In this document: one piece after another, positions 57,046-64,000 of the stretch
Position numbering within the stretch: the stretch's first letter is position 1
How the letters are laid out: every line of letters begins with the position of its first letter
Source of the DNA: an uncultured Actinomycetes bacterium
GTDB lineage: Bacteria > Actinomycetota > Thermoleophilia > Solirubrobacterales > Solirubrobacteraceae
NCBI GenBank assembly: GCA_963806515.1
Contig: CAWDYO010000009.1
Span: 20,179 to 84,178 of the forward strand
Length of the DNA stretch: 64,000 nucleotides
Direction: 5' to 3'
Notes under the pieces: generated by a model
Databases searched by the model: none
Seen by the model: the letters and a program-made list of their open reading frames with translations, nothing else
What the model was told of the DNA's origin: nothing
Made by a program: the position numbers and the translations under genes

Positions 57046-57477
57046 CTACGCCAGGCCGAACGACGAGGCGAAGCTCTCGGCGTCGCGCTCGAACGTGTCG
57101 CCGGGCTCGGACACGCGCAACTCGCCAGTCATCGGCGCGCCGCGCTGCTGGTGGGCGTGGCGTACCTCGTGGAGCAGGAGCTCCTGGCCCATGGGGGTCT
57201 GAGGCGCGTACTCGCCCTCGGCGAAGTAGATGTCCGAGCCGGTCGTGAACGCGCGGGCCTCGACCGACCGTGCGAGCGCGCCGGCCAGCGGGTCGGTGTG
57301 GATGCGCACGTCGGAGAACGAGTCGCCGAGCGTCGCGGACAGCTGGTCTTGCAGGTCCGGCGCAAGCGGCGTACCGCGGCCGCGCTGGGACGCGATCTGC
57401 GCGGTCACCTGCGGATGCACGCGCCCGCCTTCGAGCAGGCCGCCGCCGTCGGAGAAGGGGGAATGTGAAGGTGTCAC
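57046..57477 (-). CDS. DUF4157 domain protein (HExxH-like, contractile-injection-system-associated family)
   Basis: 143 aa. 'FSDVRIHTDPLAGALARSVEARAFTTGSDIYFAEGEYAP......LLLHEVRHAHQQ'. Confidence 0.75.
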   Translation of the reverse strand: MTPSHSPFSDGGGLLEGGRVHPQVTAQIASQRGRGTPLAPDLQDQLSATLGDSFSDVRIHTDPLAGALARSVEARAFTTGSDIYFAEGEYAPQTPMGQELLLHEVRHAHQQRGAPMTGELRVSEPGDTFERDAESFASSFGLA

Positions 57478-57657
57478 GCTCGAAGGCTCCTAGATGGTTG
57501 ATTGCGCGGCCAGGGCCGTCAGATGTGCCCGTATCGTGGATGCAGGTCGCCGCGGGGCGAAGGAGGACAGTGCCAGCGGCACGGACTCCTTCGGTCCGTG
57601 GCGATCCTGCGCCGCGAGACGGGTGCAGATGGCGATGCTGGTCGTGGAATCAATCAT

Positions 57658-60600
57658 CTAGTACTCGTCATCACGATACGCCGGATTGCTCCCCTTGTCA
57701 GCCACCGGCGACGTCGCCTTGGGGGTCTCGCGCCGGAAGCGGATGAGCTTGCCCAGGTCCTGCGTGCAGGCGTCGTCCTTCTGCACGACGGTCACCTCGA
57801 GCCCGTCCGGCCGCCACGCGACGTCGCAGGCCTGCGTCCCGGTCGCGATCGGCTGGACGAGGCGCAGGTCCGTGAAGCCCGCGAAGACGACCTCGAAGCG
57901 GTCGGTGTCGAGGTTCGTGATCGCGGCGATGCGCCTGCCGTGCACCGAGTAGACGGCGAGCAGCACGCCCTTGCCGGGCTTGTTGATCGGCGTCGCGGTG
58001 CGCCCGGCCCACTTCAGGGGGTCGATCGTGAACGCCGTCTTCGTGCGGTACTGGCGCACGGCGAAGACCGACGGGTTGTCGCGCCGGCGCGCCTGGACGA
58101 GCACGGCCTTGCCGTCCGGACGCCACGAGACGCGCCCGTCGAGGTTCCAGCCGTCGTCGGGCAGGCACAGGCGGCCGAGGTCGGCGAACTCGAGGCGTCC
58201 GAAGCACAGATCGCCGTCGCCCTCCTCGCGGCGGATCATCGCCAGCGTGTTGCCGTCGGACGCGACCGTCGGGCGCACGAGCGTGTCCCCGCCCGCGTAG
58301 ACGGTGCGGTAGTCGGCGTCCTTGCCGTCGTCGGCGAGGATGATCCGCGAGCCCGAGCGGTAGACGACCTGGCTTCCGCCCGGCAGGTAGGACGGCTCCA
58401 TCGCCGAGCCCTGCGGCTGGGGCAGGCGGTAGAGCTCCTTGCCGCCGACGGGGTTGTAGACGTGGACGACCGGGCTCTCCTGGACCGCCACCGGCGCCGG
58501 CCCGCCGGACGCGTTCACCACCACGACGTCGCCCTCCTCTGCCTTCTCCCCCACGGCCGGCGAGACGCCGAGCACCGTGCCCGCGTCCGTCGTCGAGATC
58601 CGCAGCTGGATGTCCGGCTTGAGATCGAGCTTCTCGAGGTCAGCCTCGTACTCGTCAAGCGGCTTGTCCTTGAAGTCCGGGATGACGACGTCGTCGGCCT
58701 TCTCGGCCTTCGCCTTGGCGTCCGCGGCCGCCTCCTTCTTCGCCTCGGCCTTCTCCTTGGCCGTCGGCGGCGGCTTGCGCAGGAAGACCCGCACCGCGGT
58801 GCCGCGGTCGACCTCCAGGCCAGCGTCGGGGATCTGGCTGCGCACGACGTAGTTGTCGGGCGCGTCGGCGGGCTGCGTCTCGCCGAGCTCGAGGCCGTCG
58901 TCGCGCAATCGCTTGTCGGCCTCGACGCGCGTCTGACCCTTCAGCCGCGGGACCTCGACCTTCGTCGCGCCGGCGGCGACGACGATGCTCACCGTCGACT
59001 CCTTGTCGACCTTCGTTCCGGCGCTCGGCGTCTGCTCGACGACGCTGCCGGGCGTCGCGTCCGGGTCCTCGCGACGCTCGACGGGCTGGCTGAGCTTGAG
59101 GTCGCGCTCGCGCAGGAGCTTTTCGGCGGCGAACGCGTCCGACGCGCCGACGAGCGACGGAACGTTCGTCTTCTGCGGCCAGAGCAGGTAGATGAGGATC
59201 GCCGCGAGCGCGAGCAGCAGCATGAGGCCGATGAGCCACAGCGGGACGACGGGCTTCTGGCGGTAGACGACCTGCGTCCCCGTGATCGGCGCGCCCGGCG
59301 TCGTCCCGCCGCGCAGCTTCGACAGCAGCGCCGGATCGGGCCGCAGCTTCTGGCGAAGCTTCTGCATCGGGTTGAAGACCGGCAGCTTCGGCGGCCTGCC
59401 GGTCTTCAGCGGCGCCGCCGCCTGCTTGCCCTGCTGCTTGGCCTTCGCCGCGAGCTTCGCCTTCTGGGCGGCGAGCCCGCCCGGCTCGGCCTCCTCGACG
59501 ACCGGCTCCGTCGCGACGACGTCGACGCCGATGCGGTGCTCCGACGTGCGGCCGACGAACTTCGGGATGCGCGGCTTGACCGTCAGCGTGTCGGCGCCGA
59601 CCTCGCCGGCCTCGATCGTGAGCTTGCCCAGCGTGAAGCGTCGCTTCAGCTTGCCGCTGTCGTCCATCGCGGCCGGCCAGAGCATCTGCTCGGCGTTGCC
59701 GTCGTTGCGAACGGCGGTGCGGTAGCGCGCCTTGAAGCGCCCCGACTTGATCGCCGGCACGACCTCGATCGACCACGCCTGGAACGGCAGCACCTCGAAG
59801 TGGGCGATGGCCCGCGCCGCGAGCGTCCCGCCCGTGCGCGACAGCGCGACGAGCTCGAACGTCCAGATCCCGGCGGTCGAGCGGTAGTCGCGCGGCGGCG
59901 CGATGTCGATCCGCAGCTCGAGCTCGGAGTCGCCGCGACCCGAGCCGAGCGGGACGAGGAACGCGGCGGCCGGCGTGACGACCGCCCAGTTCTCGGGCAG
60001 GCCGAGCACGGCGAGGTCGTAGTTGTCGACGATCTGGCTCTCGTTGCGGACGGTCGCGCGGAACGTCAGCATCGAGCCGGCGTCGACCGCCGGCACGCCG
60101 GCCGCGCCGATGACGGGATCGACCGGCGCGAGGACGAGCGACGCGTCGCCGGTCGGCGGCGGGCTCTCGGGGATGCCGACGAGCTGCTCCGGGAAGTCCG
60201 CGCCCGGAGGCGGCGGCGGCGGTGCATCGATCACCTGCGCGCCCGCGGTCGGGCCGACTCCCTGCTCGGCGGGCGCGGTGCCGACGCCGGGCGCCGCGCC
60301 GACCGGCGGCGCCGACCCCGCGTCGGCGGACCCGGCTGCGGCGCCTGCATCGGCAGCCGCACGTGCCTCGGCCAGATCGCGCGCGTCGGCTGCCTCGCTG
60401 GCGTCGCGCGCCTCCGCCGCTCCGGGAGCGCCGGATGCGCCGCGCAGCCCGGGGCCGGCCTCACCGTCGCTCGGCGGTGGCGGCTCACCCATCCCGGCGC
60501 CACTCGTGGCGGAGCGCGCTACCTCCTGCTCGCCCTCACCCTCGATCGTCGTCGCGTCGTCGTCGTCGTCCGCGTCACCGGGGACCGCCGAAAGCATCGA

Positions 60601-63445: not shown

Positions 63446-63873
63446 GAGACGACCTCAGCGTCCAGGATCGTCTCGAGGCCCTCCTCCTCGGGAATGACGT
63501 AGAAGGGATGGACGAGGTTGCGCACGCCGGGGACCTCCGGGATCTCGTACGTCAGGACGATGTCCAGCCGCCCCTCGTGGCGCCCGCTCAGATCGAAGTC
63601 GACGGCGACGACCGATGCGCGCGGCTCCCAGCGCTCGATCGCCTCGCGCACGGCGCTCTCGATCGCGCCGAACGCGGACGCGTCGAGGACGTCGAAGATG
63701 TGGTCGTGCACGGCGCAACCGAACTCGGGGCGCATCGGGCGCTCGCCGGGGGCCGTCGCGAGGATGATCGAGATCGCCTGGGCGATGTCGGTCTCGCCCG
63801 AGACGAGCGTGATCGCGCCGCGCTGGTCGACGCTGAGGGGGAACGCGAGACCGGAACCGAGATTCGAGTTCAT
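63439..63873 (-). CDS. GPW/gp25-family baseplate wedge protein
   Basis: 144 aa. 'GSGLAFPLSVDQRGAI......DIAQAISIILAT.PGERPMRPEFGCAVHDHIFD'. Confidence 0.8.
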   Translation of the reverse strand: MNSNLGSGLAFPLSVDQRGAITLVSGETDIAQAISIILATAPGERPMRPEFGCAVHDHIFDVLDASAFGAIESAVREAIERWEPRASVVAVDFDLSGRHEGRLDIVLTYEIPEVPGVRNLVHPFYVIPEEEGLETILDAEVVSW

Positions 63874-64000
63874 CCGATCATCACCGTGGCGCCCGAGAGC
63901 TGCAGGACGCCGGAGGCTTGCACCTGGACGACCGAGCCCTTGAGCTGCAGCGCGGCGTTGGACTCCACGGTCACGGGCGCGGTCGACGTGATCTTCAGCG
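63870..64000 (-). CDS. C-terminal end of a spike protein (gpV/VgrG-like beta-helix), 5' part outside the window
   Basis: My manual translation gives 'LKITSTAPVTVESNAALQLKGSVVQVQASGVLQLSGATVMIG*'. The stop overlaps the gp25 ATG (ATGA). The assignment rests on the position and the alternating beta-strand pattern only. Confidence 0.45.
   Translation of the reverse strand, partial: LKITSTAPVTVESNAALQLKGSVVQVQASGVLQLSGATVMIG

Follow-up and report, generated by a model that had tools for sequence, protein, structure and literature searches.

A CIS-Sc-lineage injection-system cluster with a predicted PASTA-propeller membrane protein at the CisA position in a Thermoleophilia-type actinobacterium

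The DNA analysed here is a 64,000-nucleotide stretch (the window; G+C content ~72%) of contig CAWDYO010000009.1, and its host is an actinobacterium of the Solirubrobacterales/Thermoleophilia type. On sequence evidence, positions 57046 to 64000 are the distal half of a chromosomal contractile injection system (CIS) cluster in the lineage of the cytoplasmic CIS of Streptomyces coelicolor (CIS-Sc; published class IId). The cluster holds, in this order, genes for a VgrG-related spike, a gp25-like protein, a baseplate J protein, a gpI-like protein, a 1013-amino-acid (aa) membrane protein and a DUF4157 protein. The coordinates of genes and overlaps come straight from the window sequence, and domains were called by Pfam and NCBIfam profile searches with curated cut-offs. 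The original prediction for this DNA had described five minus-strand genes joined by short overlaps, and these are borne out, with overlaps of 4 to 7 nucleotides. The stop codon of the spike gene and the start codon of the gp25 gene share the sequence ATGA (63870-63873), and the gp25 stop overlaps the GTG start of the J gene by 7 nucleotides (63439-63445). A GTGA sequence joins J to gpI (61439-61442), and a second, also 4 nucleotides long, joins gpI to the gene for the 1013-aa membrane protein (60696-60699). The DUF4157 gene lies 180 nucleotides beyond the membrane-protein gene and has its own AGGAG ribosome-binding site.

The proposed identities of the gp25, baseplate J and gpI products hold, each of them scoring above the curated cut-offs of its profiles. 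The gp25 protein matches PF04965 at 80 bits (cut-off 27.2). The J protein matches PF04865 at 64 bits (cut-off 21.1) and TIGR02243 at 387 bits (cut-off 155.8), and the gpI protein matches PF09684 (Tail_P2_I) at 45.6 bits (cut-off 20.6) and TIGR02242 at 78 bits (cut-off 51.85). Only the last 42 codons of the VgrG-like spike gene fall within the window. Their translation (63870-63998) shares 69% identity with the C-terminal residues 542-583 of a VgrG-related protein of 583 aa from locus L001, the closest relative, in keeping with the spike-like C-terminus that had been read from the letters. The L001 protein contains Phage_GPD and Phage_base_V domains and scores 293.5 bits against the VgrG_rel profile NF033848 (cut-off 275).

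Solved structures place the system within the known CIS. When compared with all PDB sequences, the J protein matches solely the J-like chain of entry 9GTP (8.7e-123, residues 3-641), and the gpI protein solely chain E of the same entry (2.3e-9). The gp25 protein has its best match in 9GTP chain V, which is Cis9 of S. coelicolor (2.8e-32), with matches to PVC, Afp, AlgoCIS, the thylakoid-anchored CIS (tCIS) and T4 gp25 ranked behind it. Entry 9GTP is the extended baseplate of the cytoplasmic CIS-Sc. Because it is the sole or best solved-structure match of all three proteins, the window system is assigned to the CIS-Sc lineage. Like CIS-Sc, it has no conventional fibre gene after the wedge genes and carries a gene for a bitopic protein instead, and DUF4157, ATPase and cap genes are present in the clusters of its relatives. 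It differs from CIS-Sc in its host class, Thermoleophilia, and in having a PAAR-like gene and a Ser/Thr kinase gene as conserved neighbours.

Likenesses to other systems are more distant. With Afp of Serratia, PVC of Photorhabdus and AlgoCIS, the cluster shares the Afp8/9/11/12 gene order and a DUF4157-type accessory or cargo gene at the operon end, and the window's relatives also have the AAA+ ATPase and the Afp16/Pvc16 cap. However, the window lacks a PAAR gene between gp25 and J, a membrane protein replaces the Afp13 fibre, and gp25 is the sole protein with PDB sequence matches to these systems (Pvc9, 4e-13; Afp9, 1.6e-10). The Anabaena tCIS, as summarised in published work, is held at a membrane inside its producer; what anchors it there is a fibre-like protein, joined to the baseplate, that contains a transmembrane (TM) helix. 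Its gp25-family protein is also matched (7b5h, 3.5e-14). The tCIS belongs to another phylum and another membrane, sequence comparison detects no similarity to its J and gpI proteins, and it is without a PASTA or propeller ectodomain.

The J protein has relatives at 270 loci in a scan of one genome per species. The top relatives come from metagenome-assembled genomes (MAGs) of uncultured Actinomycetes, Solirubrobacteraceae and Thermoleophilia (79-93% identity), followed by Solirubrobacter species (55-59%) and then Micromonosporaceae (~40%). Synteny of the locus holds from a J identity of 93% down to ~55%. For gene content beyond base 64000, two relatives served as guides. L001, whose J protein is 93% identical, has in the 10 kb upstream of gp25 genes for a conserved 126-aa protein, a 1313-aa protein without a family match, a gp19-type tube protein, a protein with CIS_tube and LysM domains, and the 583-aa VgrG-related protein, in that order. 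The metagenome contig L082, on which both gp25 (80% identical) and J (79%) occur, carries further upstream co-oriented genes for an AAA+ ATPase, a Pvc16_N cap, a sheath (Phage_sheath_1/1C) and a gp19 tube, beyond which there are only RTX and MopE-type proteins. From these relatives, we would expect to meet, just past base 64000, the ATPase, cap, sheath and tube genes, the large variable protein, a second tube gene, the LysM initiator and the remainder of VgrG. Sheath, tube and AAA+ ATPase genes had been predicted there, and these relatives have them.

Two of the proteins upstream in these relatives are less readily classified. The conserved 126-aa protein has no match in a viral-contig scan. 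A protein of 1100-1366 aa is encoded between the 126-aa gene and the gp19-like gene (L001 838-4779, L082 10440-13733, L165 35-4135); only its first and last ~70 residues are conserved, its middle is highly divergent, and it has no family match. It may be a tape-measure-like ruler or a cargo of the Sle1/Tme type.

A non-phage membrane protein, left unexplained, had been predicted to follow gpI. This is confirmed, its gene is the most telling one of the block, and the layout of the 1013-aa protein, which comprises a zinc ribbon, two immunoglobulin-like (Ig-like) domains, a TM helix, three PASTA domains and a beta-propeller, is new here (Table 1). Its structure was modelled with AlphaFold2 at full length, with 32 homologues (mean predicted local distance difference test score [pLDDT] of 76), and a second model covers the N-terminal 470 residues. 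The ribbon reaches a pLDDT of 65-74 in the full-length model and 78-89 in the N-terminal model, and its four cysteines and GEYL-W-PT motif are at least 90% conserved. Residues 30-176 are disordered, rich in Ala, Gly, Pro and Asp and low in pLDDT, with a helix at residues 94-122 (pLDDT 60-87) in the N-terminal model. The Ig-like region (aa 180-400), which includes an invariant RNESQIVDNYDL motif, is covered by no Pfam family. In Foldseek searches, its tandem sandwiches resemble the CEP192 SPD-2 domain, Hydin-like axoneme proteins and RbmA (6e-8 to 5e-7). A basic helical stretch of mixed confidence (aa 408-463) precedes the TM helix.

Beyond the TM helix, the PASTA domains score 94.7 bits against PF03793 (cut-off 23.2) with model pLDDT values mostly of 67-93, and Foldseek matches the array to the ectodomains of PrkC and PknB (2e-10; 3py9, 3m9g, 5e12). 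The propeller superposes on TolB (7mx5, 3.4e-11), and PD40 repeats are detected in relatives. These resemblances do not extend to whole proteins. The PASTA kinases PknB, PrkC and Stk1 can be aligned, over their C-terminal part, with the TM helix and PASTA array of the protein, but identity as a PknB-type kinase was rejected: there is no Pkinase match, and the PknB_PASTA_kin profile NF033483 gives 99 bits (cut-off 450), with its positions 335-520 only, that is, the TM helix and PASTA part. The protein differs from these kinases also in its cytoplasmic ribbon and Ig-like domains and in the translational coupling of its gene to a CIS baseplate gene. Identity as TolB was rejected as well, with a family score of 25.6 against a cut-off of 343.

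The topology of the protein can be predicted from its residues. The 86 residues ahead of the TM helix include 16 Lys and Arg residues, compared with 4 Asp and Glu residues, and because this segment is strongly basic, the N-terminus is predicted to lie inside. The invariant residues C832, C845, C958 and C978 make up two pairs in the propeller and are the sole cysteines besides those of the zinc ribbon. Together with the basic N-side, the restriction of cysteine pairs to the propeller leads us to predict a cytoplasmic N-terminal half and a wall-facing PASTA-propeller half. There is no signal peptide. The protein is predicted, with the models in support, to be bitopic, with a cytoplasmic N-terminus and its C-terminal part outside.

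Table 1. Features of the baseplate block, of the 1013-aa membrane protein and of the neighbouring region, with window positions
Feature	Position	Strand	Support or remark
VgrG-related spike gene, 3' end (Cis8/Afp8 equivalent)	63870-64000	-	truncated at window edge
gp25-like sheath initiator/wedge (Cis9 equivalent), 144 aa	63439-63873	-	PF04965, 1.2e-22
Baseplate J wedge protein (Cis11 equivalent), 668 aa	61439-63445	-	PF04865, 1.5e-17; TIGR02243
gpI-like wedge protein (Cis12 equivalent), 248 aa	60696-61442	-	PF09684, 8.3e-12; TIGR02242
Predicted bitopic membrane protein, 1013 aa, at tail-fibre/CisA position; proposed CIS membrane adaptor	57658-60699	-	PASTA x3 and zinc ribbon (Pfam)
N-terminal zinc ribbon, aa 1-29 (C7, C10, C21, C24, then GEYLxWxPT)	60613-60699	-	alignment A1
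Two cytoplasmic Ig-like (ASH/PapD-like) beta-sandwich domains, aa 180-400 (predicted)	59500-60162	-	pLDDT ~90-97
Single transmembrane helix, aa 487-505 (predicted)	59185-59241	-	model helix; hydrophobic stretch LWLIGLMLLLALAAILIYLLW
Three extracytoplasmic PASTA domains, aa 510-731 (predicted)	58507-59172	-	PF03793 in 3 stretches, 3.2e-27
C-terminal TolB/PD40-like beta-propeller, aa 737-1008 (predicted)	57676-58491	-	pLDDT >90
DUF4157/eCIS-core protein, 143 aa, final operon gene	57046-57477	-	PF13699, 1.3e-26
SRPBCC gene, in insertion	56573-56998	+	profile search
DUF1059 gene, in insertion	56312-56536	+	profile search
RHH/PIN vapBC, in insertion	55498-56141	+	profile search
Two unannotated open reading frames, in insertion	54627-55174	-	overlap 4 nt
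Small membrane-anchored Ser/Gly/Pro-rich protein, 134 aa, third operon gene	53922-54326	+	no family match
Bitopic Ser/Thr protein kinase, 667 aa, candidate regulator	51915-53918	+	Pkinase PF00069, 1.2e-50, residues 6-253
PAAR-like protein, 115 aa, candidate spike tip (Cis10 equivalent), first gene of convergent operon	51562-51909	+	PF05488

The membrane protein is widespread and closely coupled to the baseplate genes. Among the Solirubrobacterales-type loci, nearly every one that extends far enough to cover the position has, in tblastn searches, a homologue (27-86% identity) directly 3' of the gpI gene. The 4-nucleotide overlap with gpI and the motif CxxCG..N....DFC..CGEYLxWxPT are present in at least 50 of 70 related loci, as counted with a crude open-reading-frame (ORF) picker; most of the others look frame-shifted, and many of these are long-read MAG assemblies. 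A HMMER search of the whole library with the cytoplasmic half (aa 1-470) yields 1316 clusters at 50% identity, 270 of them at E <= 1e-10, and the listed matches fall in the Ig-like region. Among the 147 listed representatives beyond close homologues, 91 start with the ribbon motif and 109 have a predicted TM helix. PASTA domains occur in 52 of a sample of 64 diverse family members, PD40 in 25, FHA in three and a fusion to Tail_P2_I in one, and together with P0011 this fusion makes two database entries of that kind. Genomic contexts were also collected for five members at ~30-45% identity. All four informative contexts (Conexibacter L160, L161, L162 and L164/L165) place the gene directly after Tail_P2_I with a 4-nucleotide overlap, in clusters ordered gp19, CIS_tube, VgrG, gp25, J, gpI. 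The contig of the fifth, the four-TM relative P0265, is too short to be informative. A literature search found no paper that names both contractile injection and the PASTA domain.

Other lineages have other proteins in the slot after gpI. The proteins in Micromonosporaceae are shorter and combine two zinc ribbons and a single TM helix with an F5/8 type C lectin-like domain, and in one metagenomic cluster, a protein with ribbon, Ig-like domain, TM helix and DUF6777 is found. Examples are located at L074 12670-13677, L073 12479-12952 and L149 9086-11074, the ectodomain being F5/8 type C lectin-like, absent or DUF6777. Judged by domain content, the post-gpI slot behaves as a modular sensor position in which a ribbon and TM helix are joined to a variable part. 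Of the ribbons in the Micromonosporaceae proteins, the membrane-proximal one can be aligned with that of the window family (hhalign probability 82%, E 1e-5, 27 columns). When the Micromonospora protein from the same position was used as a query, only close relatives were found, and no Streptomyces CisA was reached.

The best-studied protein at this position is CisA (SCO4242) of Streptomyces, whose gene lies just downstream of the wedge genes cis11 and cis12. CisA is bitopic, with its N-terminus inside, a largely unstructured cytoplasmic N-terminus and a C-terminal domain outside. Contraction in situ and cell death caused by the CIS both require it; purified extended particles do not contain it, and Cis11 is its predicted binding partner. 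Attachment to the baseplate has been proposed to occur through a cytoplasmic segment that is Cys-rich and probably binds Zn, and its outside domain is sugar-related. In Actinobacteria under stress, cytoplasmic CIS kill the cell that produced them, and their firing depends on CisA. The 1013-aa protein shares with CisA the position after the wedge genes, the predicted bitopic topology, a Zn-binding cytoplasmic element and a glycan-type binding part outside. It is larger, 1013 aa as compared with 468 aa, and has two well-folded cytoplasmic Ig-like domains. The C-terminal domain of ~150 aa that defines CisA-type proteins, as described in the literature, is not found in it; on this comparison by description, the protein is classed as CisA-like and not as a member of the CisA family. 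Most likely, it is a CisA-like membrane adaptor in the CisA slot.

The final gene of the operon encodes a protein that matches PF13699 at 93 bits (cut-off 22) and has an HExxH motif (HEVRH) at residue 103. DUF4157 is a core marker of extracellular CIS (eCIS) and is linked to toxins. In AlgoCIS cargo, it lies between a disordered loading sequence and an effector domain and is dispensable for loading. The protein here has little besides the DUF4157 core, with a short stretch ahead of it and hardly any C-terminal domain, and from this sequence it is taken as a stand-alone accessory. Its homologue lies 3' of the adaptor gene in the close clade and upstream of the cluster in more distant loci. At L090, L103, L108, L152 and L153, the DUF4157 gene is 6-8 kb upstream of the tube genes (for example, L108 794-1186), and the L001 copy has two DUF4157 stretches. 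The gene thus varies both in where it lies and in copy number.

Comparison by blastn with the closest loci revealed two features that the original prediction had overlooked, a 2.7-kb insertion and a conserved operon at 51562-54326. In those loci, no more than tens of bases separate the 3' end of the DUF4157 gene from a block with homology to window positions 51490-54350. Because the relatives join these parts directly, positions 54350-57034 are interpreted as a lineage-specific insertion of 2.7 kb. Neither flanking repeats nor mobility genes were detected, and scans for repeats, promoters and terminators defined no edges. SRPBCC, DUF1059 and vapBC genes do lie downstream of the block as predicted, and they had been taken as an argument for a domesticated CIS; since they sit in a lineage-specific insertion, that argument is weak. 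They were rejected as parts of the system, being absent from the relatives compared. A perfect 28-nucleotide palindrome at 55468-55495 (GCCCACGATATCAC/GTGATATCGTGGGC) ends 2 nucleotides ahead of the start codon of the RHH antitoxin and is probably the autoregulatory operator of vapBC.

The conserved operon converges on the CIS operon and begins with the PAAR-like gene. Its product scores 26.6 bits against PF05488, just below the cut-off of 27, and many homologues at 80-92% identity match PF05488 or are named 'Zn-binding protein involved in type VI secretion'. A profile of the protein compared with the PDB finds nothing meaningful (E 0.88). Because no PAAR gene lies between gp25 and J, this protein is the likely spike tip. 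The kinase gene starts 5 nucleotides past the PAAR-like stop codon, and the translation contains a Pro-rich linker, one hydrophobic helix and an outside region of ~250 aa. The genes for the PAAR-like protein, the kinase and the small membrane protein stay together beside the CIS cluster: 14 close loci have this trio, as does Conexibacter sp. W3-3-2 (L160 13197-16068). The block with the 134-aa gene is syntenic in L001, L011, L016, L017 and L054, and Conexibacter has a 155-aa gene at the same position. In Solirubrobacter-type clusters, a protein of ~520-550 aa with FHA, YscD-cytoplasmic-like and M50-peptidase-like parts is encoded 3' of the adaptor gene (L161 10546-12204, L164 13152-14717, L165 13068-14717). 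These FHA proteins and the FHA domains fused to family members are hints of phospho-threonine signalling around these CIS. A 264-aa secreted protein (50635-51429) was rejected as an effector, since relatives do not share it in synteny and its one match, to an amidase, is weak.

The other 57 kb of the window has the content of an ordinary chromosome, with housekeeping genes that include sigma-70, a tal-pgi fusion and zwf, together with a major facilitator superfamily (MFS) transporter and copper resistance. The sigma-70 gene, which gives chromosomal context, is at 10605-11705, and the pentose-phosphate genes for a transaldolase-phosphoglucose isomerase fusion and glucose-6-phosphate dehydrogenase are at 21098-24025 and 30527-32092. 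Copper-handling genes occupy 40870-48941 and encode a 1079-aa multicopper oxidase with Ig-like and DUF7450 repeats (40870-44109) and, within 46335-48941 on the minus strand, a CopC/CopD/YtkA fusion; part of this copper neighbourhood is syntenic in L011. Also encoded in the window are a 717-aa NACHT-domain NTPase (34116-36269) and a 592-aa protein with an animal haem peroxidase domain (3702-5480).

We consider it reasonably probable that the locus encodes a CIS-Sc-lineage system whose PASTA-propeller membrane protein does the job of CisA. In such a system, the zinc ribbon, the tandem Ig-like domains or both would dock on the exposed wedge formed by the Cis11 and Cis12 equivalents. The long disordered linker would provide reach, the single helix would hold the protein in the membrane, and the ectodomain of three PASTA domains and a TolB-like propeller would face the cell wall, where it might report on or bind peptidoglycan or lipid II. 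A change in peptidoglycan or lipid II could then recruit the cytoplasmic particle to the membrane or orient it there, and in this way license contraction. Firing would push the VgrG spike, probably tipped by the PAAR-like protein encoded nearby, into or through the envelope of the producer itself. More speculatively, the membrane Ser/Thr kinase of the convergent operon might phosphorylate the disordered linkers of the adaptor or an FHA partner, and the FHA-domain proteins encoded 3' of the adaptor gene in sister lineages might add a layer of phosphorylation control. The DUF4157 protein, also speculatively, could be an accessory associated with cargo.

Nisin targets lipid II, and PASTA domains bind muropeptides and lipid II in kinases of the PknB/PrkC type. 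Because nisin was the stress applied in Streptomyces work to provoke firing, its target fits a trigger that senses the wall.

Several points weigh against a role equivalent to that of CisA. The Cys-rich segment of CisA directly precedes the TM helix, whereas the ribbon of the adaptor is at the extreme N-terminus. The CisA ectodomain is a sugar- or substrate-binding-like domain of ~150 aa, whereas that of the adaptor spans ~500 aa, with three PASTA domains and a propeller. Given these differences in ectodomain and ribbon placement, and with CisA compared by description, the two proteins may be analogues and not homologues. Beyond the 27 columns of a generic zinc ribbon, nothing aligns between the window family and the Micromonosporaceae proteins. 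We infer the contact between adaptor and baseplate, the PASTA ligand of the adaptor is a candidate only, by analogy with the kinases, and the cytoplasmic location of the particle is taken from Streptomyces only. Finally, the window itself has no sheath, tube or ATPase genes, which are supplied by the sequences of relatives.

Three other explanations of the locus were weighed. Proteins of the gp25, baseplate J, gpI and VgrG-like types are also known from tails of P2- and T4-type phages, as the Pfam family names reflect, and a vapBC toxin-antitoxin pair lies close by, so perhaps the block is the remnant of a myovirus prophage tail next to which the membrane-protein and DUF4157 genes are unrelated neighbours. 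Yet the vapBC pair belongs to the local insertion, and the synteny described above is kept across J identities from 93% to ~55%. DUF4157, the AAA+ ATPase and Pvc16_N are specific to eCIS. Among the sampled ORFs of the other 57 kb of the window, there are no capsid, terminase, portal, integrase or lysis genes, and no head, packaging or integration genes occur within the 10-kb flanks of L001, L082 and L160-L165; no lysis match was seen in the scanned window ORFs or in those flanks. The ordinary chromosome around the block and the machine genes in relatives argue for a chromosomal injection system. A prophage tail is extremely improbable and was rejected on its housekeeping context, on the head and packaging genes searched for and not found, and on the eCIS-specific genes. 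The original prediction had preferred a CIS to a prophage tail, had recognised the gene order as that of a CIS and had noted that capsid, integrase and fibre genes are absent downstream. The 9GTP matches, the machine genes of relatives and the absence of capsid, portal and terminase genes from the regions surveyed all agree with it.

The remaining two explanations accept a CIS and differ in where it acts. DUF4157, the AAA+ ATPase and the Pvc16_N cap are hallmarks common to eCIS, and a recent survey finds fibre genes in many eCIS of Actinobacteriota, which also counts against the reading favoured here. Moreover, Sco4242 was originally proposed as a fibre and was detected in purified particles, according to published work. 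The system could accordingly be an ordinary extracellular one of the Afp/PVC type, released by lysis and aimed at other organisms, with the PASTA protein as an unusual fibre, receptor binder or release helper; in principle, PASTA domains and a propeller could bind the wall of another cell. However, the protein has a single internal TM helix, so that on a free particle it would need to be extracted from the membrane, and its ribbon and Ig module are predicted to lie on the cytoplasmic side. Among characterised systems, the cytoplasmic CIS-Sc is by far the nearest, and no Afp13-like fibre gene is found at the usual position after the baseplate genes in the window, in L001 or in Conexibacter. We regard this explanation as unlikely. 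A machine that fires outward in the manner of a type VI secretion system (T6SS) seems a little less likely again. Its adaptor would be a fixed anchor in membrane and wall, a role to which PASTA domains and a TolB-like propeller would be suited, its PAAR-tipped spike would enter neighbouring cells, and kinase and FHA proteins would control assembly. PpkA and Fha1 control T6SS assembly in Pseudomonas, and the likeness to that threonine-phosphorylation pathway (PpkA/PppA/Fha1) lies in a membrane Ser/Thr kinase with an outside domain beside a contractile machine and in FHA-domain proteins beside the adaptor in sister lineages. The PAAR-like and kinase genes are kept beside the cluster from this lineage to Conexibacter, L161, L164 and L165 encode FHA and YscD-like proteins 3' of the adaptor gene, and FHA domains are fused to three family members. 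Vladimirov et al. argued for a membrane-bound Sco particle long enough to span the envelope. By contrast, no TssJ/L/M-like complex or ClpV-type recycler was seen in the clusters of relatives, and the gp25 protein scores 22.6 bits against the TssE profile TIGR03357 (cut-off 53.2). Firing in Streptomyces is linked, in published work, to death of the producer cell and not to killing of neighbours. The link to the kinase is one of gene neighbourhood only, FHA genes are absent from the window, and no phosphatase was seen.

More tentatively than we propose a CisA-like role for the single protein, we suggest that the adaptor belongs to a large, undescribed family (>1300 clusters) of envelope sensors coupled to CIS, which would tie the firing of cytoplasmic CIS to the state of peptidoglycan or lipid II, with input from kinase and FHA proteins. 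On this equally tentative view, its members would have in common the ribbon, an ASH-like tandem of Ig domains and a single TM helix, and their ectodomains would vary, most often combining PASTA with a TolB-like propeller.

A literature search found no CIS study in Solirubrobacterales or Thermoleophilia, and the locus extends CIS-Sc-type systems to Thermoleophilia, which are abundant soil bacteria. The adaptor family is present in cultured Conexibacter, Paraconexibacter and Solirubrobacter, with Conexibacter sp. W3-3-2, Paraconexibacter algicola and Solirubrobacter soli DSM 22325 as carriers, and the well-folded cytoplasmic module of the adaptor is likely to be easier to use in interaction and structural work than the mostly disordered N-terminus of CisA. 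A protein in the CisA slot whose ectodomain consists of domains with a known class of ligand leads to a testable idea, namely that wall damage is the trigger. If this is true, damage to the cell wall would be the long-sought trigger for the firing of cytoplasmic CIS.

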